64,000 nucleotides of DNA from Isurus oxyrinchus (lineage: Eukaryota): positions 1,178,001 through 1,242,000 of the forward strand of contig JANJGN010000114.1 of assembly GCA_026770705.1 (NCBI GenBank). The letters run 5' to 3'. A program made the position numbers and the translations under genes. Each line of letters starts with the position of its first letter. Position 1 is the stretch's first letter. The notes beneath the pieces were generated by a model. That model made no database searches and was not told the DNA's origin. It worked only from the letters and a program-made list of their open reading frames with translations. Positions 4,911-35,200 of the stretch are shown piece after piece.

Positions 4911-5032
4911 ATTACAGGCCTCCCCTGACTGCACAAAATTGCTTTTAAATTCCTTACATAATTTGCCACGTTGCTGATTGACAGATCAGTACTACGTCTA
5001 ACTTTGATACAAAATGAGATAAAAACTTTCAA

Positions 5033-7157
5033 CTTCCAACCTGATAGTCGCCCAACTTCGGACAGCTCGCTTCTACTTCCTACCCTAAATACACAAACAG
5101 AACTGTCCCGGTAGACCGATCGTGTCAGCTTGCTCCTGCCCCACAGAACTCATTTCTCGTTATCTTGACTCCCTTCTCTCTCCCCTCGTCCAGTCCCTTC
5201 CCACCTACATCCGTGATTCCTCTGTAACCTTACGTCACATCAACAATTTCCAGTTCCCTGGCCAACAGCTTCCTCTTCACCATGGACGTCCAATCCCTCT
5301 ACACCTCTATCCCCCACCAGGATGGTCTGAGGGCCCTTAGCTTCTTCCTCGAACAGAGGCCCGAACAATCCCCATCCACCACTACTCTCCTCCGTCTGGC
5401 TGAACTTCTCCTCACGCTGAACAATTTCTCCTTCAACTCCTCTCACTTTCTCCAAATAAAAGGTGTGGCTATGGGTACCCGCATGGGCCCCAGCTATGCC
5501 TGTCTCTTTATGGGGTATGTGGAACATTCCTTGTTCCAGTCCTACTCCGGCCCCCTTCCACAACTCTTTCTCCGGTACATCGATGATTACTTCGGTGCTG
5601 CTTCATGCTCTCGTCGGGACTTGGAAAAATGTATTAATTTTGCTTCCAATCTCCACCCCTCCATCATTTTCACGTGGTCCATTTCTGACACTTCCCTTCC
5701 CTTCCTTGACCTCTCTGTCTCAATCTCTGGTGATAGACTGTCCACCAATATCCATTACAAACTCAACGACTACCACAGCTACCTCGACTACAGCTCCTCA
5801 CACCCCGCTTCCTGTAAGGACTCCAGCCCATTCTCCCAGTTCCTTCGCCTCCGTCGCATCTGTTCTGATGATGCTACCTTCAAAAACAGTTCCTCTGACA
5901 TGTCCTCCTTCTTCCTTAACCGAGGTTTTCCACCCACGGTCGTTGACAGGGCCCTCAACGGTGTCCGGCCCATCTCCCGCGCATCCGCCCTCACGCCTTC
6001 TCCTCCCTCCCAGAAACATGATATGGTCCCCCTTGTCCTCACTTATCACCCCACAAGCCTCCGCATTCAAAGGATCATCCTCTGCCATTTCTGCCAACTC
6101 CAGCATGATACCACTACCAAACACATCTTCCCTTCTCCCCCACTGTTGGCATTCCATAGGGATCGTTCCCTCCGGGACACCCTGGTCCACTCCTCCATCA
6201 CCCCCTACTCCTAAACCCCAACCTATGGCACCAGCCCATGCCCACGCTAAAGATGTAACACCTGCCCCTTCACTTCCTCTCTCCTCACCGTCCAAGGGCC
6301 CAAACACTCCTTTCAAGTGAAGCAGCATTTCACTTGCATTTCCCCCAACTTAGTCTACTGCATTCGTTGCTCCCAGTGTGGTCTCCTCCACATTGGAGAG
6401 ACCAAACGTAAACTGGGCGACTGCTTTGCAGAACACCTGCGGTCTGTCCGCAAGAATGACCCAAACCTCTCTGTCGCTTGCCATTTTAACACTCCACCCT
6501 GCTCTCTTGCCCACATGTCTGTCCTTGGCTTGCTGCATTGTTCCAGTGAAGCCCAACGCAAACTGGAGGAACAACACCTCATCTTCCGACTAGGCACCTT
6601 ACAGCCTTCCGGTCTGAATATTGAATTCAACAACTTTAGTTGTTGACCTCCTCCTCCATCCCCATCCCCTTTCTGTTTATTCCCCCTTCCTTTTGTTTTT
6701 TCCAATAAATTATATAGATTTTTCTTTTCCCATTATTTCCATTATTTTTCAATATTTTTAAATCTTTTATGCTCCCCCCACCCCCACTAGAGCTATACAT
6801 TGAGTATCCTACCATCTATTCTCAATTAGCACATTCGTTTAGATAATATCACCAACTTTAACACTTATGTGTTCTTTTGTTCTGTTGTCTGTGACATCTT
6901 TTGATGATCTGCTTCTATCACTGCATGTTTGTCCCTACAACCACACCAACCCCCTCCACTTCTCTCCCCCACCCAAACACTCCCCCCCTCCCCCAACGCA
7001 CCACACACACACCCTAAACCAGCTTATATTCACCCCTTCCTTGGATTCACTCAGTTCTGTTGAAGGGTCATGAGGACTCGAAACGCCAACTCTTTTCTTC
7101 TCCACCGATGCTGCCAGACCTGCTGAGTTTTTCCAGGTAATTGTGCTTTTGTTTTGA
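5033..7157 (+). mobile_element. 5'-truncated Penelope-like retroelement copy 1 (RT + GIY-YIG endonuclease + 3' terminal repeat), disrupted
   Basis: ORF 5282-6214 has DVQSLYTSIP, QIKGVAMGTRMGP, LRYIDD, LPFLDL. ORF 6317-6646 has GIY-YIG NLVYCIRC..LHIGETKR..EH..LGTLQPSGLNIEF. Stops or frameshifts near 5086, 5262, 6212 and 6248. Confidence 0.93.
7053..7091 (+). ncRNA. Minimal type I hammerhead-like motif in the PLE terminal repeat (probably inactive, cleavage triplet GCC)
   Basis: agtt-CTGTTGA-a-gggtc-atgag-gactc-GAAAC-GCC-aact; stem I agtt/aact, stem II gggtc/gactc. Confidence 0.6.
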
Positions 7158-7249: not shown

Positions 7250-7880
7250 ACACCAGGATGGATTTGTTGTGGCCCTGAAAAATGACAGACATCAGGGAAA
7301 GAGTGCTCTGAATGTAACGCATGTGGGTGAAATTTATTATTCCTCTAAGGGGGGCTCTGCCGTTTCGTACAGAAATAAAGCTGATTTCCAGAGGAAAAAC
7401 GGTCCACGTATGATTAGCGAAAGAGACCAGGTGACGAAGAAAGTGCATTTGGTGAAGTAGTAGGTGCCAATTGCAAACACAGTAAAATAATTGATCTTTA
7501 GGTTTGTGGAAAGTAGGTATAGATGGGAGTCTAGGATGATGCTGATGCAGAGGAGCAGGTCGAGGGCGGAAGTGCAGGATATGGGACCGTCATGGTAGAT
7601 CCCTGTGTGCGCCAGTGAAGCCGACTTATGGGCAGAGCATGGAGGAAATAATTTCTATAGTAGTGTTGTGGAACGTGGCCCAATTAATACAGATGTGATG
7701 AAGGCGGAGGAATATGAAAAATCAACTGAGAAATTACAGGAAGCAGAATGGCAGGAATAATGATAAAGATTGGTGTGCATGACAGTAGCATTGTTATACG
7801 TATTGTAAACAGTCTATCCCCACAAATGGAAATAGGAAGTCGAGGGAGGAAGCGGGAGGCCTCACAGATAAGTCATGCAT
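7250..7880 (-). mobile_element. Old degenerate Penelope-like RT/EN fragment, antisense
   Basis: Minus strand 7810-7870 (cttcctccctcgacttcctatttccatttgtggggatagactg) resembles the LPFLDLSVSISGDRL codons of copy 1. Confidence 0.5.
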
Positions 7881-8569
7881 AGGGAGGACAGGAATTGAAT
7901 TATTTTATATAATAGATAGGTGGTCTATTCCAAGTCAACACCAGTAAACTAAAGGCAGAATAACATAGCAGTTAAAATATCAGAAATAATGTTCCCTTCA
8001 CATAAACAAAGGGATAGCTAGGACTCTTAAGGATTTAATATAATTATTCTGCTTTCATTGGAGAAATGCTGTAGATGCAAAGGTGATTTTTCCAATAAGA
8101 GTTAAGTTTCGACAGATGAAGTGTGTTGCTGTTACAAGGCAATTATTTGGACTGACGTATATGAATGAAAAAGATGGGTCGTTTGGGAAGCGTGGAAGGG
8201 GTCAGCGATGAAGCAATCCACAGAATTCCCAGTAACGTAGCAGGCTAAAAATCCACTTGTAATCTTGGTGAATAATAATTAATAGGGATGAGGGAGAGAT
8301 CGAGACTACCCATTCTGAGAAGAGACAGAAGTGTTCTCTGTCGAAATGGCTTTTCAAAGTATTGTGCTGCACTGGATATGAACGTAAACCTGAGGGATGG
8401 TGGTAGTGGGTGCCATGCCAGGCTGCCCTTAACAGAAGCTGAGGTGTTAGAAGGAATGGATTTCCAACTCAGTGATAGAGTTGTAGAGCGACTTAGTGTA
8501 TTGGTGAGGGATGAACTACAGAAAGATTGGTTGTTCCAGCATGGTCTGGAGAGGTAGACGGAATGGATG

Positions 8570-8970
8570 TCATAGTACAAAGAAAAGTACAGCACAGGAA
8601 CAGGCCCTTCCGGCTCCAAGCCTGCGTCGATCATATTGACCATCAACTAAAACATTTTGCACTTCCAGGGTCTGTATCCCTCTATTGCCGTCCTATTCAT
8701 GTATTTGTCAAGCTGTGTTTTCAACACCTCTATCGTTCTTGAGCCTTTGGAGTTCGCTGCCACATGAATTAGTACAGGCCAAAACATTGCATGTTTTAAA
8801 GGAAGAGTTGATATAGCTCTTGGGGTGAAATGGATCAAAGGATGTTGGAAAAAAGCTGGAGCAGGATATTGAGCTGGATGATCAGCAATGATCAAAATGA
8901 ATGATGGAGCAGGGTCGAAGGGCCCAATGGCCTACTCCTGCTCCAATTTCTATATTTCTATGTTCCTATG
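8570..8970. mobile_element. Two CR1-type 3' tails in opposite orientation
   Basis: 8570-8735 antisense tail (acagcacaggaacaggcccttcgg); 8750-8970 sense tail ending gggcccaatggcctactcctgctcc..tctatgttcctatg. Confidence 0.6.
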
Positions 8971-8974
8971 TTTC

Positions 8975-9530
8975 ACATAAACTCTCTCCCTATCTCTCTG
9001 TCTCTCACACACACACACAAACTCTCTCCCTATCTCTCTGTCTCTCACACACACACACATGTGCAAAGAAACACTCACTCACACAAACACACAGAAATAC
9101 ACACACAGACACAACATGCACACACACACAAAAATCACACAAACGCGCAAATGCGCAGACACACATATGAATACACATAGGCAAACAAAAAATGATTCAC
9201 ACCTGCTCACATAATTACTGTCACAAGCAGAGATACTCAAGCACACAGACAAAATCTCACAAGCACTCCCTGACACACAAACACACAGAAAAGCACACGT
9301 GCACACACTAACAGCAATACACATATATCAGGTACATAAACACACGTGAGTTTCCACATTCGCAGAAATTTTAAGATAAACTTCCGTTTTCACACACAGA
9401 AATATACAGGAATAAACATACACATCTCTCCCTCTCTCTTACACACACACTTTCATGAACACACAAATGAACAGACACACACATGCACACACAGGCACAT
9501 ACATACACATTATCTCACACACGCAGCCAA
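8975..9530. repeat. CA/CT-rich low-complexity and microsatellite tract
   Basis: Imperfect (CA)n; includes a 40-bp tandem duplicate at 8981-9059. Confidence 0.9.
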
Positions 9531-9884
9531 TGACTCAGACAAGGACTTTCAGGCACCAATACGCAGGATAATCCCACAATGCACATCACCATGTCTATAC
9601 AATCCATTGGATCCACGCGCACCTGTCCTCTCCGAGTCCCCCTTCCGGTGACCTCAGCAGCCCCAACTCCACATGCCGAGGAGGGTACCTCTTCCACATT
9701 TTAGGACCACGACAGCAGGCTGGGTACCTCCAGAGGCTGCCCGTCAAGGTAAAGACATTCAACAGGCTGTGTCCACTTCTGATCTGCATTCTGGGATTCA
9801 ACAATACGTATGGGCAGAGTTTGGGAGTTTGGGAAATGAACTTGCAGAGCCTGGGCAAGTGTGTTAATCCCTTCTACTTCACTA

Positions 9885-11270
9885 GTATAAATTAACTCCC
9901 CAGAATGTGCCTTTCCTGTGTCTCCTTGTTATGATGAGCAGTGTTTGTGACACTCGGATATGAAATTTGATAATCTGTATATTTGCAGCAATACATCCCG
10001 CCTCCTTTACTCGAATATTCCAGCTACGAAGGGCGACACACCATCCGCCTCCCCCATTAACCACTGCACTAGCATGCTTACCCTCAGTGGCTGGTGCACA
10101 AGGACCCCCATACCTCTTTGCCCACTCCCCTCACTCAATTCAAAGCCATTCAGATAACGATCTGCCCTCCCATCCCTGCGACCAGAGTGGACAAACTCAC
10201 ATCCGTCCCCAGCACACTGCTTCTGGCATGCAGCAGCCCACCCACTCACCCTGTCCAAATCACACCGAAGCATCTCCGCATCCTCCACACAGCTCACCCT
10301 CCCAACCAGAATCATGCCATCTGCAAATTCGGAGACACCACACCCAGCTCCCTCATCCAAACCATCGACACACACCCTGAATAACCTGGATGGCAGCAAC
10401 GACCCCCGCAGCACTGCTCTATTCACTGCCTGCCATTTGGTAAAAGACCTGCTCATGACCGCTCCCTAATTCTTGCCTGCCAACCAGTCTTCTGTCCATC
10501 TCTGACTCTGTCCAATTCTGCCACTGCTTCCCAAGGGCTCACCTACCAAATATTCCAAATTCAACTCCTGAATTCTCCACACCACCAATGTCAGCCCGAC
10601 TGGTCAACTACTCCCTGCGTTCTGTCTAACTGCCCTTCCAAATTTTGGCGTTCCGTTAGTTAAGCTCCAACCCGCAGGAACTTTACCCGACTCTATAGAA
10701 TCTCAGAATATGACCACCAGTGCATCCACCACTTAAAGGGCGACCTCCCCAAGTACACTGGGACGTAGACAATCAGGCCCCAGGATTCCACTGACCCTCA
10801 ATCCCATCAATCCCTCCAACACCATTTCTGTGCCCATACTGGTCCCTTACAGCTCCTCCCTTACACTCTAGACCCTGCTCCCCAACATTTCTGGCACGTC
10901 ACCCACGTCCTCCTTTGTGAAGTCAGAACAAAAGAATCCATCTAGTTGGTCAGCCACCCCTTCGTTCTCAATCATAAATCACCTGTTTCTGACTCTAAGA
11001 GACCCGCACACGTATCCACCAACCCTTCCCTCCTCACATTCTATAGAAGCGTTAACAGTCAGTTGATATTTTCCCGCAAGTCTACTCGCACACTCCACCC
11101 TCGCCACTTAATCAATCCTTTGGTGTTCCCCTGATGAACTCTAAAGTGCTCCCAATCCTCGTGTCTTTCCCTTTTTCCCCTCCAACTTGTGTGCCGCTTC
11201 CTTGGATCCAACACTATCCCCAATTTCCCCTGTAAGCCATGGATCAGAGACCATTGCTATCTCCCCCTTG
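9885..11270 (-). mobile_element. CR1-type LINE ORF2 fragment, antisense, with heavy sense-strand A>G substitution
   Basis: ORF 10007..10456 VCVDGLDEGAGCGVSEFADG..LRCDLDRVSGWA..CEFVHSG..QRGMGVLVH aligns to the CR1 RT pattern IYINDLDEG..ISKFADD..LQxDLDRLSEWA..CEVIHFG..QRDLGVLVH. Confidence 0.85.
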
Positions 11271-11499
11271 TGCCAGACATGAACAAACAAGTGTTGAAGC
11301 CACAAAGCGCCCCCCAAATATCCGTCACTGCCCATCCACCGTCATCCCTCCAAACAACGTTTCCAAATCCAGCATAGGCAGGCCGCACCCCATACCATCG
11401 CAGCCTTCTCCATTACGTTTCAGGACCCTTGTTTCAGATCTAAATATGTCACTCTCTGTCCTCATGAAAAACTCAACCATGTCATAGTCACTTAACATC

Positions 11500-12480
11500 A
11501 CTGGTGAGGGATGAAAGTGTAGAAGGACTGGATGCCCGCAGAGGGAGACGTGTAGAGGTACCGGATGCCAGGGGTGAGTGAGGTGGCCTGGACAAGCTGG
11601 ATGTCTGGCTGAGTAATGGGAATGCAGTCTTTCTGTGTGCCAGGCTGAGGGATGAATGTGTAGAGGGAAAATGTATGCTGTTGAGTGTCCGATGCGCAGA
11701 ATAACTGCATGCCCTGTGATGGATGGAGGTGAGGAGTGACTGCCGGTCATATTGCGGGATGGAGGTGAAGAGAGATTGGTTTTCCTGGTGAAGATGAAGG
11801 GGTAGAGGTTATGAATACCCTGTTGGTAGACGAAGGTGGAGATGGATTGAATTTCCTCGTGAGGCATGGAAAGGTGGAAAGATTGTGTGCCCTAGAGAGG
11901 AATGTAGATGTGGATGCGGCATTTAGGTGAAGAGGAACAAGATATCCATTGAGGGAATGTTATGCAGAGGGACTACAGGACGTGGCGAGTGATGGAGTTA
12001 AAGAAGGACTGAATGTCATTGTGAGGGATGTTGGCATAGTGAAACTGGATGTCTTGTTGAATAATATATATTCAGAGGGACTAATTGTATTGCTGAGGTA
12101 TGTGTGTGTGGAAGAACTGGATGCCCTGCTGATGAATGGATTTGCAGGGGGACTAAATGTTGTTGTGATGCATGAGGCTTAGAGGGATTGGGAAACCTGG
12201 TGAAGATAGAGTTCTATGGGGATTGGCTGTTCTGCTGAGGGAAGGATGCATCACATTTTTATTCTTTTGTGGTATGCGGGAGTGGTGGTAAATTCAGATT
12301 TTGTTGCTGATTCCTAATTGCCCTTTAATTATAGAGTTGTAAGGAAGGCTATTCCAGGACCTTAAACAAACAACATGGAAGGAACGGTGATACAGATGTA
12401 GTGCTATGTCCTAGTTGTTGTAGGGGAACTGGATGTCCATTGTGAAGCAGAGTTAGTGAAGGCCAGGATACTAGAAATGG
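11500..12480 (+). repeat. Degenerate tandem repeat, about 33-38 bp unit (gagggactggatgccctg..gagggatg)
   Basis: Recurrent ctggatg(c/t)c and gaggga motifs at roughly 35-bp spacing. Confidence 0.6.
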
Positions 12481-12539
12481 TTAAGCATGTTGCATATAGT
12501 CTGAAGAGAATTGTAAATGACTTTCAAAATATTAGTGAT

Positions 12540-13040
12540 AGCCAGAAGTGGGAATGATGTGGCAGACAGCTACACCATTTTTATAAAGGCATTTGGGTGA
12601 TGTTGCATCACTTGCTAGGCCACTATACCCTGCCCATTGCCAATTGCCCTGATATTTATTGTGGGAGCCAACTTCCTGTGGTGTAGATACATTCTCTGTG
12701 CGGTTCGGTGGGATTTGCAGGAATTTTGTGCATCGGCAGTCAAAGAACGACAATATACTTCCAAGTCCGTACGGTGTGTGAGACTTGGATGGGAAATTGC
12801 AGGTAGCATCGCTTCCATGTGCCTGCTGCCCTTGTCCTTCTATGTTGGAGAGCTCGTGTGTGTGGAAGTTTTGCACAATAATCTTATGCAGTATTTGCAG
12901 TGTATCTTTGAAATGGTACACACTGCTACCATTGTCAAAGGGAGAGGGAATGATTTACTTAAGGCCGTAGATGGCGGGTGGTGCAGCAGTCAAGCGGGCG
13001 GCTTTGTACTGGATGTTCTTGAGTGTCTTGAGTGTTATAG
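12540..13040 (-). mobile_element. Ancient L2/CR1-like LINE 3' fragment
   Basis: Reverse complement resembles the 3' ends of the sense copies at about 16100-16380 and 22250-22600 (gggcaa..gggcaat..tggcc tail). Confidence 0.55.
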
Positions 13041-20200: not shown

Positions 20201-23200
20201 AAATTTGAGAAGCTCATTACTCTTCTCACATAACAAAAGTAAGCGGAGATAGGAAACTTTCACATGAGTAAAGTGATTGGAATGCCTGTTGGACCCATTC
20301 ATTGCCCGGACTTTTAACGGGGGTAAACGGAAATGGAGTTCCCCAGTGCGTATTGGCTTTGCAATGGAAGTTACAAACCTGAGCCACGGGTCAGAGCTGG
20401 ATCCTTGACAGGTGGTATATTTTCAATTTCTTCATAAATTGCTTGGTACAAATCAATTGGTGAAGCCCAACTGCCAGTGGCAAAACCTGATGGAGACAAT
20501 GTGGAGGGATTAACATTTTGTTGCATTTTACTTTGCTGAATATTAAAATGTTTTCAAATAATATCACAAAACAGATGGTGAATGTGAATGCAAAAAGTCA
20601 GTGAGCTGGCTTTGAATGATCTTTTGTTAAGTACGTTTTATTTTACAAGAGAGTGCGTCTCCAAATGTGTGTGTGAGAGAGATAAAATGAGAGACAGAGA
20701 GAGAGACGTTATGTACATGGGGCTGTGTCTGTGTGGGCGTGTGCATGTGTGGGTAACCGCATGGAAGCATGTTCAACTCCATCAGACTAGGGGAAATTTA
20801 ATTAAGGTCGGAAAAGACGAAACAAGGCGTTTCCGGGAGGAATCAATTTCAGCTGAAAACTCTGTCTTGAGACCCAAGGAGATTTTAGCTGAAGAGAAGC
20901 AGGGGAAAAATGATTGATTCTGCTGAGAGCATCAGGTTGGAAAGACGAGTGAGGAGCTGACCTTTCTTTTAGGTATTGCATCAACATTAAAATTAATTTG
21001 CTTTGCGCATCGAACAGGAGTGTGATGGTTGTTCAGATCAGAGTAGTTACTTATGTCAGTGTACACAATATTCAAAAATTGGTGCTGAAAATCCCATCGA
21101 AGTCTCACATCTCAAAATTGTGGATCGATTCTGGCTATGGAGAATGAGAATGGGCATCAGGGCACGGAAACTCAAGGAGTGGACGGACACTGGATTGACT
21201 TCGAATGACGGAAACATCATGACTGGTCACTAAGTCTAAAATGCTTCAAATAACCTTCAGATCTATGGCTGCAACAATTGATTGACCTTCAGACGCAGTA
21301 GCGGTGGAATCATTAGGACTGCGAATGTGGACAGTCAAGTGATTCTTCAATTTAAATGACACATTTCACTGTTTGACCAAGTACTTTGAACGAATATTCT
21401 CGTTAAATTGCTTAACATAAGTTTCCAACATGACAAGTGACATTCAATGGAAAAGGGCAATAAAGTGAATTCTCGCCAGTGTATGAGGCATGAAGGCCAC
21501 TGAAATAAAAAACACTGGAGCCAATAGGATTCAGGGGGAAATTCTTCACTGCTTGAAGTCAGAGTGAGCATAGAACAAGGGAATTGTGGTTGTTGGATGT
21601 CAATCATCTCTTAGTAGTTGGACATTAATGCAGGAGCTCCTCAGCATAGCGTGCTAGGACCAAAGTTCTTCACGTGTTTCATCAATGACCATGTCTTCAT
21701 CTGAAGGTCATGAGTGAGGATTTCCACTGATGATGGCACAATGTTTATTACCGGTCCCAAATCCTCAGCTACTGCAGCAGGCCATGCCCACAAGCTGTCA
21801 GACATGGACCATATCCAGGCCTGGCATTCATAGTGGAGAGTAAAATTCGTGCCTCACTAGTGCCAGGAAATGACGATCTACAACAAGGTGCAATCCAACT
21901 GTCAGCCTTTGACATTCAGTGGCATTGCCATCACTGATTCCCCCACTAACAACATCCCAGGCATTTCCATTGACCAGAAACTGAACTGGGCTTGTGATAT
22001 GAATGATGTGGTGACAAAAGCAGTTAAGTGACAAGAAACCCTTCTGAGGAACCCAACACCAGACTAGGCAAATCCTTTCCATCGTCTGCAAGGGACAATC
22101 AGGAGTATTCCTGAATATTATCCACTTGCCTTTTTGAGAGCAGCTACAACAAAATTCTAGAGGTTTGCCGCCATCCAGAATAAAACTTTCTGCTTTTTTG
22201 GCACCATATCCACAACCAGTCACTCCATTCATCATCCGCTTACAGTGGCAGCAGTGTGTACTGTTTACAAGATGCACTTGAAGAATCCAGTAAGGCTACT
22301 TAGGTAGGACCTTCCAAAACCACATAAACAACCAAGGAGAATGACAAGCGAAGCAGAGATATGGGAAAACCACTTACTGGAAGTCACCCTCCAAGCCTGT
22401 CACTATTTTTATTTAGATATTTGTCGCCGTTCTGACACAGTCGCTGGGTCAAATCCTTAAAAACCCTCCATAAAAGTACGGTGGTGTACCTATGCAACAT
22501 GGACTGCAACGGTTCAAGACGTCATCTCATCACCACTTTCTCAAGGGCAATTTTGGATGGCCAATGAATGCAGGACTGCCAGAGAGTCTCAAATATCATT
22601 CATGAATTGAAATAAAAAATTAAAATATCCGAGATTTAATGTGAAGTGAGTGGTAATGTTTGTCCTCACCTTTCCTTGATGATTGCCTCCGCATTACCAC
22701 AATTAGTAGGATGAACTCACAGATCAACAGGATACCGATTGTTATACCAATCACAAGAGGGATGGAAGTGATATTGTCTTCATGTCCTTAATGAAATGTT
22801 AAAGAAAGATTCAACTAGGACACAGGATGCTTTGTATTGTTAAACGGTCCAACATTCTGAAACACTAAGATTAACCTCAGAATTTCTTTATAAAAACAAG
22901 CAAATGCCAATTATATCAGATCATTCTGAACATTAGCCTTGACAGGAATACTCATTATTCATAAGACCAACCTGCGGGTTTGGATGGAAAAGCAGCCGAT
23001 GACAACTCTGGACCTATGGGTTATTATACAAAAAATATAGAACTTTAACTTAGAAAGTCATCTCTTTTTCATCATTTACGAATTCATGAGACGTATTCAG
23101 CAAACAATCACCAACCGCCAATCTCCGGGCCCCTACTCGCACCATTCTGCACTACCCTTACCGGAACAAATCACACTGGCGTCCTCCTTGTGATCACAGT

Positions 23201-26200
23201 CAGGTTGAGCAGACGCTAAGGAAGGACAATCAGAGAGAAAGGATTCGCTTCCGGTACACCTCACCTCATCAAACCACATGTCACCTTCACCCTGTCCAAA
23301 AGTGGCCCCTGCTGTGGCCAATAGAGCAGAGCCACAATGCAGCTGTCTGCAGACAACATTGGCATCGGCCATATCCCAAGAGTCATCACACACTGTGCTC
23401 CAGTTGTTTTTGCACATTATCTCCACTCGCCCAGAGCAGTTGGTGTTACCTCCAATCAGGCGCAAACCTACATCTGAATCTGTCAAAGATAATCAATCAC
23501 TATTATTTCTGCACAAAAATACAGGTAGACAACTTCGATAATTGATCTATTAAAGTGGAGCAATCACCTGATTCTCCTCCACAATCCTTTTCACTTTTGG
23601 GCTGGCCCTTCGTTATCTTTCTTCCTGTTGAGGAAAGAAACGTGCTGACTCATTTGGACATCAATGAATGAAATAACCATCGCACATTGGAAGGTTTGTT
23701 TTATTACCTGAACATGAAACGCCTGCATCCTCTTTGTGATTACAGTTATGTTGTCCCCACGGGTCAGTCCGACACTGCCAGATGGTCGACTCATGTGAAA
23801 TACATTCTATTTCATCGAGCCAAATAGGTCCGGATCCTTCTCCGAATGACTGAGTGGTATAGTCTATAGAAACCAGGGGGCCACACTGTAACTGTTTACA
23901 GATCACCTCAGCATCATGGGGATCCAGTGCTTCCGAACACACTGTTCCCCAGATCCCATTGTAGAACACTTCCGCCCGCCCCTCACAGCGATGATTTCCA
24001 TTCACCAGCCGCAGCTCTTTGTGTTCTATCAACGAAAGAAGAAATCTCCAGATATTTTCAGTGATAAATGGAATCATGTCAACAGTGCCCCCTCCACCCA
24101 AGTTGTGCCAGAGGTGTTCACTGAATAGAGATAATTATTCCAGAAATGTAACAGTGATACATGTACAATCCAATTATATAATCAATGATAATCAACACAG
24201 ATTTCAAAAGAGCAAACTATAGATCTTCCAATTCATTGAATTACTTGAGGAAGTTTCAGAAAGATTATGTGGAGATAATAATGTCCATGTAATCCACGTG
24301 GATTTTGAAAACAATAACTTTCAAAAAGTTTTCAAACAGCTGCATTAAGGCTGAGAACAGGGAAATGAAATTGCCGGCACAGTATTAAAAGAAGAGCCAA
24401 CAAGCGACAACGCAGGATTTCATATATAATAGCAGAAGTTGGGGCGTGCGTACACATGGATTATTGCTGGGGCTCACATCTGTTTCAGATTAACATATTA
24501 CATTTGGTATTTGGAATTGAAGTAAATGTTCAAAATGCACTACTGTTTGCAGTTAATACCAAGACAGGTTCCATTAACTGCAGGAAGACGGTCGGAGACA
24601 GCAGGATAGGCTTGTCAATGCTGAAATTATTTCAATGCTGATTAGAATAAAGTCGTGATTTTTTCGGACAAAGAAACACAAGAGCCAAACAAATTGGGAT
24701 TTAGGAGCTTTTCTGTTTCGCTTTCTATTACCCAGATAGAAGCAGAATGTGGAACATGGAACATGTACATTTAGTGGGGGCGAATTATGGTGATGCCTTG
24801 AATGTGATGTTTGATAAAGGCACGAGGGGAAAATACAGAGTGCAATACAGCTCAGACCACATGAAATGATCTAGGATTATGAGCAGAATAAGCAGCAGTC
24901 AGACGCATTGAGCAGAATGACCAGTTGATGTACAGTTTCTGGGCCATTCAGTAAAATTCCATCTGTCTGAATCTTCTCGTATGAAAGAAATAGGTGCATT
25001 TACGTCACCCTTACCTGAGCACATGACCTTCACATCTTCTTTATGAGAACAGTCGTGGGCACCCCAATGTTCAGAAGGACATTGCCAGAGATTGATTCCT
25101 CCCCTGAACACTCCAAGCCTTCCAACCAAACTGGACCTGAGCCTGCTCCGCAAGAGGCAGGAAGTGTCACGTCCAAAGCCTTTCCGCAATGCAGCTGTTT
25201 GCAAACGACGTCAGCGTCTGTCAGATCCCAGGAATCATCACAAACTGAGCCCCAGGTCCCGTTGTAGTAAATCTCCACTCGGCCTGCACATGGGCTTCCA
25301 CCGTCTGACAGCCTTAACTGTTTGTGTTCTGATCCAAAGAAGACAATCTTTATTACAAGGATTCGATTACGCATTTATGTCATAACACAAATTGAAACTA
25401 TTGGATATTATCCAGCAAAAGTAATAAAACAAATCACTTGACTATGACAGGTAACTGTTTCTATAGTTGAGACCATGTATCTCTAATTACTTGGAAATTT
25501 ATAATGTGGAGTGCACAAAGATTTCAAATATTCCTACACCTGATTCCATCGATATTTTGGCTTGCAGTTCACGTATTGTGTGCTCAGTGCTGTGTGCCCT
25601 GTTTCAACCTCAACTGAACTTTTTTGTATTCATCGTTCCACCTAAACTACTTATGAACATCAATTGTACACAGCTTTTTCTCTCCCCTGCACGTATCTCG
25701 AAAACTTATTTCAGTTGATTTCTGATTATCTCGCTTTTTTATTTTGATTATATTGAAAAAAAATGCTGCAATTCCTCAGGGGATCTGGCAGCTTCAGTGG
25801 AAACAAGAAACCAAGTGACTTTTAAGAATGACATTTCATAGAAGCTCAGTCTTCTGCTGCTGAAAGACCTGTAAGTGCATCGTTTTTTCATGGATTGAAT
25901 AATGCAGAAATCCCATGAGTGGCCTGTCGCTCTGACGGGTATGTGAACGGCAATTCTATGAAAAAGTTGTTAAATTAACACACAATTTCGCACCAAGCTG
26001 TAAGGCCCCTCCCAACACCACACCGCCCCGCCACTCACAACTCCCCCCGCCCCGCACTAACAGAAGTGCTGTCAGAATTTCCTGTTTGAGAGAAAACTTT
26101 GAATTCCGTCGTTAATAAATGCGCAGCAAAAATGCATGTCCTGCTTGTTGATCAGTTCTATCCGTGCCCACTCTCCTCACGTTAGCCCTCCAATGCTAAG

Positions 26201-29200
26201 CAGTTAGGTTAAAAGAACTCGAGGAACAAGTGACGTATATTCACACCTCCCTCCTTATAAGATATTTCTATTTATGTTCCGGTAAAATTGAACTATTTAT
26301 TCACCTGAACACAGAACCCCGACGCCGATGCTCCCATTGAGAGACGAATTCATTGCAAATGAGCTGCAGTTGCAGAGATGCAGTTCGTTTCCTCCACACT
26401 GGACATCATTCACCCACACAGGCCCTTCACTCTCTCCATACATTGCAGAGGTATAAGCGGCAAGTGCGACACCACATCCTAGTTGCTTGCAGACCACGGT
26501 AGCATCATGGAGGTCCCAGAGGCTGTCCTGTACTCTGCCCCAGCGACCGTTGTGGTAAATTTCCACCCGACCATCACAGCGGCTTCCCCCATTCGTCAAT
26601 CTCAGTGACCAGCTTTCATCTACAAGATGACAGCAAGGGGTAACATTCAAACAAATCATGCACATTTGACTCAATATAACCAGGGCAATGATTATTCACG
26701 TAAATGTTCTGACCCTAGTGCCAAGGTGAGGCAGATCAGTGGGACCCTGCTGAGCACGCTGATGCGGGAGGGTGAGCAGTCAGCATTCGTGCTCCGTTAG
26801 TGGAACAATTTCAGAGGTAGGAAGAGGGGTGTAGTCCTGCAGATGATTTTTAAATATGTTGCAAGCAATCTAGTAAATTGCCATCAACGGAGTAATATCC
26901 TGATAATATTGAAATATCCCAGCACAACGTACGAGCGATAGAACTGATGAACATGTCGCAAGATAAACTGTGCACGAGAGTCCTAATGAAGCTCATGTGA
27001 CTTTGTGACCTGTTCTCATGGACTCATAGACTCAGTTCTGTGAAGAAAGGACCAATGTGTTTCACATGAAAAAAATCCGGGGGCAATGTCCGTCTGGTTT
27101 ATTGGTTGGACAGTACAGAATGAATTTGTCAGGGATTTGGGAACGGGCAGATATGGTTAGAGAGAAAAACCAAACTGCACAGAAAAGTAGAAAAGAAAGA
27201 TTGCAATAACGGAGGAAATAATGTGGTGTTATTCGTGATAAGCACAACCGGGGTTGTATAATGGCCTCAATTATATTTACTTTTCGGGTGTGTGAACGTA
27301 CATTGCAATAAATGATGTTTGTGACGTGCAGGCTCTGAAAATGACTGAGGAGCAATAATGGAAAATTGGCTTAGACAAGTGCAGGACTATGCAAAAGCTC
27401 AAAGGCTCCCTGGGTGATTAAAGAGATGGGGATTAAGGTGAAGCCGAAATAAATATATATGGATAGGATATTGAATTTGGATAATGCAAGAGAGATCCAA
27501 GATGAGTGTACAATATCCAGACCATATAAGAGACTCCCACTAACATAAAACGGGATCTTACAGTCTTATATAGGCACAAAACAGACACCAAAAAGGAAAT
27601 CGGCATATAAAGGCTGATGTTATGGCTCAGCTGCTGAGTCAGCATTTTGAGTATGTTTTTTTTGCTAAGGAAGAAAATGCTCCTCAATGGTGGACAAAGA
27701 ATAGGCAGATTAAATAAAATGGAGTGTTTAGATATTTATAAAGAGGACGAATTGGCTTGGACAACTGATGTTGAATTTGACGGGACACATGGATTGGATG
27801 ACGTCTATTCGGGGAGCATGACCAATGTCAGAGCCGAAATCGCCAGATAATGGTCATAATGTTCCCATCCTTCTTCAATGCCGGTAAATGAAGTTTCCAA
27901 ATATTACACCCTTGTTCAAGAAATGGTGTTAGGATAAATGCAGTAAATTCGGACCAGTAAGTTTAATATTGGCTTTGGGAAAGCTTTGTTTCCTTGGAAA
28001 ATATACATTGGGGCAGAAGTTAGAGCCAGTTGAAAAATGTAGTTTCATTAACAATCTTGGGCGGATTTGGTAAGAGACAATCTCATTGCACGGACTTGCT
28101 AGAGTAATTTAATGAGGTTAGTGAGACTGTTAATGAGGCTAATGGAGTGGATGTGGCTTTGATGGACTTTGAAATGACCTTTTTAAAGGGTCACGATAGC
28201 TGCTTGGCAGAAATGTTTGGCGCCTGTGGAATAAAAAAAAATAACTGATTGGAGATGGAATTGCTCTTTGAAAGGGAACAGGACGTCGTGTTCAACGTTT
28301 CTTCTTTTCCAGACCAGAGGAACAGGACATTCCACCTGGCTAGAAACCCTGATTTTCCGTTAATACATGATATCTACCGAGACTTGGTTGTAAGGGGAAC
28401 AATTTCATTTTTTTTCTTCAAAGTATACAGAATTTTTTTTCGTGTTGTAAAATGTTGAAAGATTAAAATTAAATCAGACACCGACAAGCTGTTAGAACGG
28501 GCCGGAAAGTTATAGACGAAATTCGGTTGAGGGAAGCATTGGTTGGCCCATTTTTGTTGGAAGTAAAAAAAATACCTATTTAAAGTAGATAAGTATTTTT
28601 TTCAAAACTCCCGGATGCCTCAGCGCAAGTTACAGTCATTTATTTGCATTGTGTAATGTCAGCACTGTTGCAATTTAAGGAACGCCGCAGCCATAATGGG
28701 CGCAGTAAAATCGCACAAAAATCGTGTGATAATGACCAGATGAGCTACATTGTCTGATGTTGATCAAGGGACAACTTTGGATAGACTCCCTAGTTTCCCT
28801 CAAAGTAGACCCATGGTAAATATTTTTATTAACCTCCACTGATGCAGATATGGCATCGATTAAACCTCTTACCTGGAACAAGCAAAATTATAGAGAACAG
28901 CATTCCCACAGCACTGCACTTCATTCACAGACTTGACTGCTCTGGTAAATAACTTGAAACATTCTTGAAACAGGCCTTGTGCTTTAGAAGTGAGTGTTTT
29001 TAAGAGAGGTAAGGCTGGCAAACGAAGGACTAGGAGAAGGAACAATAAAGAACTGGATCATTTCTGAATGAGTTTCAGAAGCTGACGATCCTCGGGTACA
29101 TTTGTAAGAAACATTGTACTTGACAGCGCAGGTTGCGAAAAGGCTGCTAAAGTTTGGAGTTCTTTGGTGTATAACTAAGGCACAGAGTACACTGAAGGGA

Positions 29201-32200
29201 AGATGTTATGATTCATTTCGGCCTCATCTGGAATAATGCTTCCAATTCTGGGCTAAAAACGTTAGGGAGGGTATGAAGGCATTAGCAATGATGCAGGAAT
29301 GCTTCATAAGATCATTCCGGTGATGACAAACGTATTTTTTCTACATTGTTTGAGTGAGCTACGAATATTCTACTTGGAGAGGGAATGCTAAAACAACCTT
29401 CGGGTTCTGGACATTACGGCACAGAAAAATTGTTGCCATTGGCGGAAGGATCAAGAATGATCAGTTCAGATTCATGGTGATGGACAAATTGGAAATGGTG
29501 ACTTAAGGATGCTAATTTTGCATGTTGCGATTAATTACGTTCTGCAATGCACTGCCTGAGAATGTGGTGGACGAGGATATGCAATGCACTGACTGAAATT
29601 GTAGTGAATGATGAAATGCAAAGCACTGTCTGAGAAAATGTTAGCTTAAGATCTGCAATGCAATGTCTTAGATTGTGATGGATGAGGATCTGTAATGCAT
29701 TGACAGAGAATGTGGGTGATGAGGACCTGGGATGCAATGTACCAGAATATGCTGGATGGCAATCCGCAATACACTGTCTGAGAATGTGATGGAAGACTGT
29801 CTACAATGCACTGGCTGAGAATGGGGGTAGGTGAGGATCTGCTTCAAGCTATCTGACATGCACATTCTGAGATCGTGGGGGGGGTGAGGATCTGAAACAC
29901 ACGGTCTGAGATTGTGGGGGATGTGGATCTGCAATGCAATGCTTGGGAATGTGGTGGATTTGGATCTGCAATCCACTGCCTGAGAATGTGGGGGAATAAA
30001 GATTTGCAATGCACTGTCTGAGAATGTGGGTGATGAGGGTCTGGAATGCACATGTATGAGAATGTGCTGGATGACGATCTGCAATGCTCTTTCAGATAAT
30101 TTGGTGAATGAGGACATGGAATGCACCTTCCGACAAGGTGGTGGATAAAGATCTGAAATATGCTGTCTGAGATTGTGGTGGATGTCGACCTGCAATGCAC
30201 TGTCTGAAAATGTGGCGTATGTGGATCTTCACTGCATTTTCTGAAAATGTGAGTGACGAGGATCTGGAATGCACTATCTGAGAATGTGCTGGATGACGAT
30301 CTACATTCCACTGTCTAAGATTGTGGTATTTGATGATCTGCATTGTACTGTTGAAGAATGTGGATGATGAGGGTCTGCAATGCACTGACTGAGAAAGCGA
30401 AGGATGAGGATATGAAATGCACTCTCTGAAAATGATGGTGATGAGGATCTGCAATTCATTGTTGGAGAATATGGTGCTTGAAGATATGAAAAGCATTGTC
30501 TAAGAATGTGGCGGCGAGGATCTGAAATGCACTGCCTGAAGATGTGGTGGATGAATATGAATCGTAGATTTTAAAATATATATGGTTAGATAAATGACTG
30601 AAAAACAATGCACAGTTATTGTAAATTGCAGGGTTGTGTGAGTGGGTGAGATACTTTCGCAGAGAGCCTCCATGGACAGAACATGCTGAAAGGCCCCTTT
30701 TAGTGTTGCAGGGAGATTATTTTAATCCATGATTACATTGACTGAGAGGTCTCACCTGAACAGATGACACTGGCGAAATTTCCATGTGAGCAGTTAAAAT
30801 TTTCCCCGGTTGTAACCCGACACTCTGTCACTCGCGATTCATTCCCGTGGCACCTGTAATTTTCCTTCCACACAGGGCCTGCTCCCTGCCCAAAGGGAGA
30901 AACCCTCGGGATTTCCTTTACAGCCCCGCACTGAAGGTGCTCACACACCACACTGGCGTCTTCTAAACCAAAGTGAATATCACACAGGGTCCCCCACTGC
31001 TCTCCGTGCAGCACTTCCACCCGGCCGGAGCACCTGTTCTCACCACCAACCAATCGGGGTCCATGCTTCCCTGTTTTTAATAAAAACAAGGACGAAAATA
31101 TTTTGTAAATGAACATTTGAATATAGACATGGCGAAACAAAGAAAAATGAAGAGATGAAAATTTATAAATTCGTGTTGTACTGCACTGTTTATACATCTT
31201 ACTGTTTGAAACTCATTAGACTGCGATAAGCCCTTAAACGAACGCATCTGTTTGCTCAAAGTACAGAGTTCATCCAGGAAAAAGCTAATGGAATTTTGGA
31301 CTTTGTCTCAACAGCTTTGAAATACCAAAGAGAGGACGTGACGTTTCAGTCATACCCAGTATTGGCCAGAACCAACCTGTATAACAGCTGTCAGATTTGG
31401 ACAGGGCACTCCGGAAGAAACTATTCGTCTTGGAGGGGATGCAACGTATATATAGAAGGATGCTTAATTTACTTAAACATTGTATTGTGATTCCAAATGG
31501 AACAAAAATGTCTTGAAGTTATTTACTCTGGAAGGATTAGGGCTGATTGAACGATGTTAAAAATCTTAAATGGATTTCAAAGATGTGGCAAAGAGTCACG
31601 GGTCCAGTAATCCAGAACAAGGTCGCTCAAGGGATGAAGTTGTTATTGCCGGGGACAGGAATATATTTGAGACGGCCTGCATTTATTCCTGTTTTCTATA
31701 TTCCCCTGTGGAAGCGATTGAAATTGATTCTCTTGGACTGCTGACGTAGGCACATAGCACATACAGTTGCAATGCTGCTACGGAGATAATCCCACTATTT
31801 TGAGCAAGAAACAAGAAAGGAAATTTTCTCCTAATTATTTACTTTATTTCGGTCAATTCATTGAAACGCCTCTCTAAAATAATGCAACCACAGTTAAATA
31901 TTGATTCGCCTACTTTTATAATTAATGAAGTCATTTCATGTTTGGCAGACAGAAAACGACTTGAGAGTTCAATCGATAATGGGTGTTCTGGCAAATGTGA
32001 ATGAAAAAAGCTATGTATGGTGCAAGCATTAATTTCGCAATAATAATGCGTTATTTTCAGATTACGTAGAAGTTACTGACTTAAACATAATTGCGTTATT
32101 ACAGAATCATAAAAAGCGACAGTGAACTATAAAGAAGTGCTTGGGAATGATCATAATACAAGGAAACAGCAATGGCATTTTCTCTGTTTCTGAAAAGTTC

Positions 32201-35200
32201 ACCAGAAAACCTTTATGTGTTTCGGAATCCTTCTACTCACCGGAACAGCTCACACCGACATCGTTCATGTGGGTGCACTCGTTTTGATTTACTGGAGAGA
32301 TAGGGCAGTCTGTCAGGCTTGTCTCATTGCCTTTACAATCAAATTTATCGCTCCGTAGAATTCCAGTGCCCTTTCCAAAATAAGCCCCTTCTTCCACAGA
32401 CACGGGGACTCCACACTGAAGCTGATGACAGACCACACTGGCATCATTCCAATCCCAGTGAAGATCACACACTGTTCCCCAGGTTGTACCGAACTGTATT
32501 TCCAGTCTGCCCGAGCAGTTGGAATCCACGGATACGAGTCTGGGAAACCTGTGATCTGAGTAACAACAATTCATGATTGTCCCAATCATTTTCAATTTTG
32601 TGCATATCTGTTTAAGCAAAACCTGTGATGATGACTTCTGATAAGGGTTTCATCCCGGAACAATAGCGATTAAGCTAAACCCCACAATCCTCCAGAAGTT
32701 ATTGCTTGTAAAGAGGCCACATGCATCCTTTAACACACTTAGATTTACTGCTACCTCAGTACAGTGTTACAAGCATGCACTATATCTGCAGAGAGAACTT
32801 GGCTAAACATCTATTGAGAGAGAAGTGCTCTTTGACGTCAAACAATCTCTGCACTACCTGCAGCGAAAGTTCTTCATTGCATATTATTCTTATACCGGTT
32901 CCCGCCCGGAATCCATAGACTGAAATGCAACCATACCATCCATCATTCCAACACACGTGCACACCTTCGAGGTTCGGTCGATAGATCTCATTGATGATGA
33001 TCACCAAGAATTCGACTTTTCACAGCTGATATTTCATTGGCACTAATGCCCAAATAGAAACTACATCAAGTTGCATCCAGGCAACATTCCCCCCACCCAC
33101 AGACACCCCCCCCCCCCCCCTTACCCCAGCCAACCCAGCCATCATTGCAGGAAAACATCTGATCAACAAAAAAATTCCCTTTCTCTTACATTCCGTATTT
33201 TCTATCGAGTTGAATTTAATAGTTTTAAATACATATTTATTTTCAAAGTCCCAATTTATCTACTTTTACCACCTCTGGCCCCTCATTTTTCAATCCCCCC
33301 TCTTGAAATTATAAGACCCACTGTTCACAACATCTACTTATATGGAAGTGACAGCAGCTTTCTCTTCATAACACTTTCAGGGCGTAACTCTTCCCTGGAA
33401 CCGGGCGACTGCAACTAGACATATCCTGTGACCGGCCAGAAAATTACTCAGATAAATCCAGGAACCCTGACTTGTCCTCGAATCTACCATTTGATCTGCT
33501 GGCGTTTGTTCTTTCGTCGATGGAGCATATTGACGAACACAGACACCAAATAACCTCAAACATAAAATGATTGATCCCACAATACTTACCCAGTGAAACG
33601 TTCCGAACGCTGGAAGCACAAAGCAATGTTAAGTGCCATTTTGAATATGTCAGTAAAATGTAACGGTCACATACAAGGGGCAAAAACAGGCTCGTGTTAT
33701 TTTAGCATTTTTAAAGTATTGACAGCTGAATCCAAACGAAACAATCACCGGATAATCATGTACAGTTTTGTGAACCAAGCCTTAGTTTTAATATGCTGAT
33801 CATTTAAGGAGTGCATTTCGGGCTCCCCAGAATGTTTCCCGCCTTCCAAGTGCAAACTTGAAAGGACAGCTTATGTCAATTGGTTCATGTTCCCGTACAT
33901 CGCCTTTTGATTCCCGAAGCTTTAAATTTAATAGATCACTGAAGCATTTCATACTAATATATATAATCAATCACATACAAAGGGAGCCTCTTAAGGCCAT
34001 AATCAATGTGCAATTGAATGGGGAGACAGTGTTATCCCAACAATATTCTCTCTCTTCCTCACTCAGACCTCACTTCTACTGTAATCAGGTCAGTGAGAGG
34101 CAATGAGAAAGCAAACTCATTGCAACCGAATAGTCTTCACGGGCCTTGGCAATTAATGTCCGGTAACCTTCCATCTGTAGCCTGAATTGCATGGCATAAT
34201 ATAGGGGTGAATGGATTAAAACAAAAATGACCCTCAATAATTATGGGTCATTGGATCCAGGACACCAATTACACTGTCAGATGCATTAAAATATTTGGAT
34301 GACAGACTATCAGATCGCTGCCTTCTACAATGTTTACCAACATTGTTCATGGATCGTTTGTCCATTAACGAATGTTGTCTCTGAATATCGCTTCCACAGT
34401 TGTAGTGCCAAAATCTTACTGGTGTAAAACGTGAACATTGTCTGTCCACAGGTACCCCTTACCCAAATCCATGGTTTTAACATCTTCTGTTTTTTTTTTC
34501 TGAAAAAAAATAGTTACATTATTTCCTTTACATTTCACAGTAGATTTTCTGTACTGTCGTGCAGCAGAAAAAAAACAGCTAATTCCGTGTGAGAGACGAT
34601 GTGGAGCTGGCGGACAGCTAGCAGAATTAATCCCAAACTGCATAGCAAACAGCCATCAGTAATTAAGGATGGATGTTAGATATTCAGACCAGCACAAAGG
34701 TAGTTCGTTGTGTTCCAACAGGACTGATGCCAGGAACAATATTGTTTGCCGTTTACAGAAACAGATTATCCACAGGGAATAGTTCAAAATTAGTCTGTGG
34801 AGTCAAATTCAAAGCGCAGTTTAAACTCAGGAAAACTGTGAGAGGGTACTCACAGAGACAGAATAAACAGTAAATGCAATAAATTCCCAAAAAGTGCACT
34901 TAATTTGCAAATGAATGTTATAATAGTTAAGGGCAATGCGTTATTTTTGTGAGAATTAATTCAGAGCTCAGGTATTCATTGGAAAATGAAAGTGCACATT
35001 AGGTAGATGTGCCATCGGATCTCAGTGTCTCGGCCTTCATTTTTGGAGGGAAGGACTTAAAAAGCTTGATAGTTTCATTATATTTCGGTCAGCCCACTCT
35101 CGCACTGCCGGCATTTTCCTGTCCCGCGGAAGTCAATGGACATTTGAATAGGTCATCTCCATTGACACCCACGGCACCACCGCAACGGGGCCATCAAATT

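Follow-up and report, generated by a model that had tools for sequence, protein, structure and literature searches.

The question raised by this locus is why a CR1 retrotransposon copy in the shark Isurus oxyrinchus carries G at so many positions where its relatives carry A and, if RNA editing was the cause, which RNA was edited and how it came to be inherited. The copy lies within the window, the whole stretch of 64,000 nt of contig JANJGN010000114.1 that was analysed. Conversion of A to inosine in RNA, followed by reverse transcription, is established chemistry and leaves A>G changes in DNA. From an approximate consensus, the first-pass annotation had proposed that the RNA of the element was hyper-edited by ADAR before reverse transcription, and that the copy records a conflict between ADAR and a retroelement.

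The copy proved to be one arm of a longer composite insertion in a scavenger-receptor (SRCR) gene cluster (Table 1), built from a spacer and pieces of two families that we take to be CR1 (CR1-a and CR1-b). A genome search with the RT block of the arm returned 40 matches: nineteen at 95-100% identity on five scaffolds, and twenty-one at 75-76% across chromosomes. Kilobases of flanking sequence are common to the nineteen close copies (sixteen form one block and three have a rearranged 5' side), and the 19-20 near-identical copies are therefore segmental duplicates of one event, which predates the 19-20-fold duplication. A G-rich subfamily, which the annotation had named as an explanation that would tell against editing, was rejected on these common flanks and on the lack of synonymous enrichment. 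The reference for substitutions was the majority sequence of twenty young copies of the same family with intact ORF2 (one duplicate left out). This majority sequence is an open ORF2 of 843 aa, and the dispersed young copies lie 2-5% from it. As they were picked by similarity to the query, its difference from them can only be understated. One young copy (L077) possesses the Pfam domains Exo_endo_phos_2 and RVT_1; the window frame aligns to it, with block B of the arm showing 50% amino-acid identity to the young copy's RT.

Table 1. Components of the composite insertion and its flanks, with window positions; substitutions are given as changed over scored sites
Feature	Position	Strand	Observation
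Whole insertion (2,929 bp) in SRCR-cluster locus	8572..11500	-	11501 directly adjoins 8571 in three older paralogs (one on C20, two on C18)
CR1-a arm, edited, block A: 5'-truncated, within ORF2 (family ~326/334-1329)	10503..11495	-	window copy A>G 106/350, T>C 12/219
CR1-a arm, edited, block B: 3'-truncated, within the RT region (family 1518-2045)	9975..10502	-	window copy A>G 56/161, T>C 8/122
Stop-free stretch of dead RT frame (152 codons), incidental	10010..10465	-	catalytic FADD reads FADG
Unedited spacer: decayed DDE_Tnp_4 DNA transposon piece (~9971-9620) and CA-rich sequence	8965..9971		A>G 4/84
Unedited 3' remnant of inverted CR1-a (225 nt), family 2399-2624	8740..8964	+	T>C 2/55
Last 168 nt of CR1-b, the second family, with its short-repeat tail; unedited	8572..8739	-	A>G 0/41
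5' host flank, unbiased control	11501..12560	-	A>G 6/228, T>C 22/223 relative to two paralogs with an empty site
3' host flank, unbiased control	7367..8571	-	A>G 5/197, T>C 10/262 relative to three paralogs with an empty site

Comparison of the paralog majority with the family majority over 1,475 sites showed A>G at 159/500, against T>C at 18/336 (Fisher p=1e-22), G>A at 21/426 (p=2e-27) and C>T at 23/213, with each transversion type at 2-7%. A>G on one strand thus lies far above every other mismatch type, which is the footprint expected of ADAR; sense-strand G>A, the mark of APOBEC, stands at 4.9%. The three results named beforehand as speaking against editing were all looked for and none was found: A>G is not matched by an equal T>C, there is no G-rich subfamily, and the host flanks are free of the bias (A>G 6/228, 5/197 and 8/282). 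Editing prior to reverse transcription is well supported as a result.

A>G makes up 159 of the 335 differences in the arm, and the remainder is a flat background rich in transversions. Unedited copies of the same family in related loci show an equal background, with A>G there at only 3-9%; the background is therefore regional, and the excess transversions were rejected as part of the editing event. No clustering of other mismatches around edited sites was found. The A>G changes are spread evenly over the arm (0.21-0.50 per 100 nt) and blind to codon position, and no selection is apparent, since synonymous (34/124) and non-synonymous sites (124/368) changed alike (p=0.22). That the direction is from A to G is indicated by other CR1 subfamilies, which have A at 90 of the 106 scorable edited sites, and by the intact reading frame of ORF2 in the family majority. 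Among 94 TA sites, 47 became TG and six became CA, which excludes a TpA process acting on both strands. After the duplication the asymmetry is gone (A>G 17/354, T>C 10/370), so that it was a one-time event, and none of the twenty young copies has an A>G bias.

The sixty nucleotides quoted in the first-pass annotation were placed at window 10375-10316 on the minus strand. Its statement that nearly every change is A>G holds within them (16 of 17 differences from the computed family majority, counted by eye) and fails over the whole arm, given the proportion above. An E>G replacement had been read there against an approximate consensus with E; the computed consensus has K and the real change is AAA>GGG. 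The extent given to the edited CR1 was too small, as the computed arm runs from 11495 to 9975 in two blocks. Base skew had been taken as a distinctive mark, yet the sense strand of the CR1-a family is G-rich in general and comparable skews occur at 6000-7000 and 11600-12200. The reported stop-free run of about 450 nt is present (10465-10010), but it lends no support, as 3/19 paralogs keep it and ~2-3% of simulations yield such a frame with or without editing; on the same grounds it was rejected as a sign of function. A Pfam search with this stretch gave no match.

Within the insertion, the bias is confined to the arm: A>G stands at 7/194 in spacer plus remnant and at 7/235 in the rest of the insert. 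It drops sharply at the junction between arm and spacer, from 15/40 in the last 150 nt of the arm to the level of the spacer (4/84, p=7e-6). Blocks A and B of the arm are separated by an internal deletion of 188 nt. The empty site is clean, with no target deletion and a target-site duplication of 0-1 nt at most; target-site duplications of CR1 are usually short or absent. Older paralogs of the upstream flank are 70% identical to it. Three empty sites, a CR1-b tail at 8572 and a truncated arm at 11500 are signs of target-primed reverse transcription (TPRT). The CR1-b tail, which ends in a short repeat, compatible with the CR1 clade, where such tails take the place of poly(A), is 90-91% identical to dispersed 5'-truncated copies and is likely the priming end. 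The spacer, which like the remnant derives from an older duplicated locus, is 70-73% identical to that locus on six scaffolds, and its dispersed relatives carry DDE_Tnp_4, marking a transposon that is presumably Harbinger-type. The inverted CR1-a is full length or near so in all six older sister loci examined, and the remnant has four of eight diagnostic variants in common with these inverted copies. The start of the CR1-b tail (8739-8740) is homologous to CR1-a position 2442, 43 nt from the remnant end at 2399, a possible U-turn template switch.

Two simpler origins of this arrangement were rejected. The arm is not an inverted duplicate of the local CR1, as only two matches other than A>G were found among ~50 diagnostic sites; it shares almost no diagnostic variants with the local CR1 and is therefore an independent CR1-a. 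A 5' inversion by twin priming was rejected by reasoning, as the pieces join tail to tail.

The frequency of A>G in the arm depends strongly on the 5' neighbour (p=4e-9), falling from T (47/86, 0.55) through A (65/153, 0.42) and C (24/89, 0.27) to G (22/135, 0.16). This is the order U>A>C>G of ADAR, although the individual contrasts of CA with GA (p=0.06) and TA with AA (p=0.08) are not significant. A depletion of G 5' of edited A had been predicted by the annotation and is borne out; neutral A>G in the young copies shows no such depletion (1.7% after G, 1.3% after A). Upstream-G depletion belongs to the ADAR motif in the available text of PMC3197674 and PMC4365171, as does downstream-G enrichment. 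The latter is absent from the arm: G follows 42/159 edited A and 145/500 of all A (Mantel-Haenszel odds ratio 0.98). Exons encoding A_deamin, the ADAR-family deaminase domain (of the ADAR1, ADAR2, ADAD or ADAT class), are present in the genome. Judged from the sequence, it is very probable that ADAR edited the paired CR1 arm before reverse transcription, because A>G is restricted to one strand, follows the 5' order, is blind to coding and is confined to one component of an insertion terminated by a LINE tail.

How the edited RNA was made and inserted is a separate question, and the best reading is not an attack by ADAR on the mRNA of an active LINE. The framing as a conflict between ADAR and a retroelement finds no support, as the edited arm lacks a 3' end of its own and is a passenger in a chimeric insertion. 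The somewhat likelier account is that ADAR edited the stem of a hairpin transcript, which was then retroposed as a passenger by the second CR1 family. At the source locus, the CR1-a arm would have lain ~1.2 kb from an inverted full-length CR1-a, and a read-through RNA would have folded into a stem of ~1.5 kb, with the spacer and the CR1-a 3' end as its loop. ADAR would have converted about a quarter of the A in the stem to inosine (0.32 minus a background of ~0.055). The reverse transcriptase of CR1-b would then have primed at the CR1-b tail, already present in the loop or reached by a template switch, and proceeded through the loop into the 5' arm, where inosine was read as G, without ever copying the far arm. 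The stem is a deduced structure, as the far arm is absent and only the 225-nt remnant of the inverted partner survives. In keeping with such a hairpin, the neighbour of the arm is an inverted copy of the same family, full length in the sister loci, and the portion of this copy that has no partner in the arm is unedited. Against it, a separate earlier insertion of CR1-a is needed, because the arm is no copy of the local CR1, together with loss of its 3' 580 nt; and pieces drawn from different RNAs would leave the loop unedited as well.

The latter arrangement is the main alternative. ADAR would have edited a separate CR1-a RNA (for example, an mRNA that had formed a duplex in trans with antisense RNA), and the insert would have been built by template switches in one reverse transcription, passing from the CR1-b tail to an antisense transcript of the old locus and on to the edited RNA. 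The substitution spectrum serves this reading as well as it does the hairpin. The arm has no private synonymous variants, as expected of a near-master RNA, the internal junctions show 2-3 nt of microhomology or a near-repeat (by eye), and a U-turn between paired RNAs could explain the 43-nt offset of the CR1-b tail, an argument made post hoc. Multi-part LINE chimeras have been described (PMC2104539, available text). However, two or three switches are needed, one of them by chance onto the sense RNA of the family whose antisense copy had just been read. Pairing in trans with a full-length mRNA also predicts T>C in the remnant, where 2/55 was seen (p=3e-7 against the rate of the arm). A fold between remnant and tail is not significant (z -1.3), and a hairpin of these two parts was rejected on that value. 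Assembly by template switching is regarded as unlikely.

Origins without RNA editing fare worse. Error-prone DNA synthesis of the polymerase eta type, in second-strand synthesis or repair, would leave WA>WG on the new strand, the signature of that polymerase. WA sites did change more often than SA sites (112/259 against 46/239), the strand and the direction are those expected if a cDNA template was copied, and no 3'-G preference is seen. Nevertheless, the excess ends at the junction of arm and spacer within one insertion, SA sites are still well over background, and A>T and A>C are at background (14 and 6 of 259 WA sites, against 6 and 4 of 178 TW sites). An excess of ~26% across 1.5 kb is moreover far beyond a single pass of a poorly processive polymerase, and this origin is considered very improbable.

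Another adenine mutator acting on one strand, either a reverse transcriptase that errs specifically at A or deamination of the DNA in an RNA:DNA hybrid, can be given hardly any credence. ADARs edit DNA in such hybrids in vitro (PMC12925331, available text), and the missing 3'-G preference leaves room for a different enzyme. Yet an infidel reverse transcriptase would also have copied the tail, remnant and spacer, which are unedited; editing of first-strand cDNA would appear as T>C in the sense strand, contrary to the A>G observed; and 0/20 young copies show the bias.

Ordinary genome evolution (GC-biased conversion, transcription-linked asymmetry, TpA hypermutation of both strands, APOBEC G>A in the family that left the window copy in the ancestral state, or a G-rich subfamily) draws on the transversion-rich background of the region, a G>A slightly low in the arm and a host gene on the same strand, but is refuted by the strand, flank, outgroup and copy controls and has a negligible chance of being right: T>C is 5%, A>G in the flanks is 2.5-2.8%, TA>CA is 6/94, outgroups have A, dependence is on the 5' and not the 3' neighbour, codon bias is lacking, the nineteen close copies have common flanks, and the highest A>G among 150 other CR1 alignments listed is 0.21.

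The search for further edited copies that the annotation had called for brought up no independent one in motif screens. A motif with three forced G had no matches, and neither had its T>C control. With two G, five candidates were obtained among 5,444 motif copies in 5 Gb, none of them edited, and the fifteen matches of an RT-region motif were fourteen known paralogs and one unedited copy of another subfamily. Among the alignments listed for CR1 (328, at 210 partly overlapping loci), no edited copy was found outside the paralogs; the value of 0.21 cited above comes from a 63%-identical subfamily in which G>A is 0.15. Edited ordinary insertions of CR1-a thus look rare: their share is estimated, at one position, at under roughly 0.2% of 3'-intact copies (0 among 5,444), assuming a chance of ~0.3 that an edited copy carries both tested G. 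So low a frequency argues against a routine mutagenic defence directed at CR1-a mRNA and for a rare passenger event. Among 21 non-paralog matches (40 of 282 candidates scored), none spans the junction of an unedited arm and the spacer, as the source locus would. Copies of this family are sparse, with one CR1-a among 30 CR1 matches in 450 kb sampled at round coordinates and the 5,444 motif matches in 5 Gb, and the presence of an inverted one beside the arm speaks for the hairpin.

Known systems offer partial parallels, each taken here from the available text of the papers cited. In the U3 region of Rous-associated virus and an inverted repeat of avian leukosis virus, ADAR hyper-editing was fixed by reverse transcription (Felder 1994 and Hajjar & Linial 1995, cited in PMC12925331). 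Dense A>G of the RNA strand, in one case in an inverted-repeat region with nearly 50% of A changed, was made permanent there by reverse transcriptase, and by analogy the arm would have arisen in the same way. Unlike these, it is 1.5 kb of non-LTR sequence, fixed in the germline, older than a 19-20-fold duplication and a passenger of another LINE family. APOBEC editing of vertebrate retroelements leaves G>A by C-to-U change on the cDNA of LTR elements, other mismatch types being very rare (Knisbacher & Levanon, PMC4866542). The arm appears parallel to such endogenous retroviruses in its strand-biased cluster of one mismatch within a genomic retroelement, made by a host deaminase before integration, but enzyme, element class and route are different, the change here being A>G, governed by the 5' base, and the element a LINE. 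With hyper-edited cellular RNAs the arm shares a high fraction of edited A, upstream-G depletion and an inverted partner ~1 kb away, the mean distance in ultra-edited Alus being 855 nt; those cases are confined to RNA and include the downstream-G enrichment that the arm lacks (PMC3197674, PMC4365171).

Chimeric LINE retrotranscripts made by template switching include U6-L1 (PMC4476161) and tripartite fungal chimeras (PMC2104539). In these, too, a single insertion joins unrelated pieces and the primed side carries the 3' end of a LINE, but here one component is hyper-edited and the pieces resemble the arm and loop of an inverted repeat. Restriction of LINE-1 by ADAR1 in cell culture also brings ADAR together with LINE RNA; it is apparently independent of editing, with no edits in >2.5 kb of L1 RNA in the available text (PMC5224506), whereas editing here is heavy, on a truncated and presumably paired arm. 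The available part of a 2016 review describes as undetermined whether ADAR editing shapes genomic Alu sequences (PMC4982230). No published ADAR-edited LINE fixed in a vertebrate genome was found in the full-text literature searched, which was mostly open-access.

This locus is unusually well controlled, with parent family, unedited segments of the same insertion, empty sites and nineteen descendants in one genome. It is real and probably ADAR-made, one rare event without sign of function, and as a single, apparently rare and non-functional event it has limited weight as evidence of host defence. RNA heavily laden with inosine can very likely be copied by a LINE reverse transcriptase over 1.5 kb and inherited. 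More tentatively, and from n = 1 event, LINE machinery may capture ADAR-hyper-edited hairpin RNAs in trans into the vertebrate germline, in which case "edited retro-chimeras" (edited stem, clean loop and foreign LINE tail) would form a recognisable and datable class. Such insertions would record how ADAR acted in the germline deep in the past, on which duplexes and with what neighbour preference, and would constitute an RNA-editing route to heritable change in DNA. One-strand A>G with the 5' order T>A>C>G and no codon bias gives a search recipe for a genome-wide census.

Some features of the surrounding DNA were also noted. A run of SRCR-domain exons, which we take to be CD163/DMBT1/WC1-like, occupies window 21800-38030 on the minus strand, the strand of the edited arm's sense. 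The SRCR unit is duplicated about twenty times at 95-99% identity on C114, C62, C47, C87 and C303, with older paralogs on C18 and C20. Duplicated blocks of greater age (L100-L122, on C203, C105, C278, C53, C95 and C20) are 20 kb or longer and 70-78% identical between lineages; they contain the decayed DDE_Tnp_4 transposon, CA-rich tracts and full-length CR1-a, with no host gene in the open frames listed. On duplicated scaffolds, about half or more of the changes are transversions, compared with 29% in the dispersed young copies, and the CR1-a there lies 13-20% from consensus with little transition excess, which suggests a faster and flatter mutation regime in these regions. Two young copies of an RT element whose C terminus bears a GIY-YIG-like motif, presumably Penelope-type, lie on the plus strand at 5030-7156 and 49588-51635 (92.6% identical over 1 kb). 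The element is polymorphic among the duplicated units, and in the paralog at C47:2.976 Mb a further copy has landed at the 5' junction of the edited insert. A degenerate tandem repeat of ~1 kb, with a period near 95-110 nt, lies between SRCR exons at window 29541-30554.
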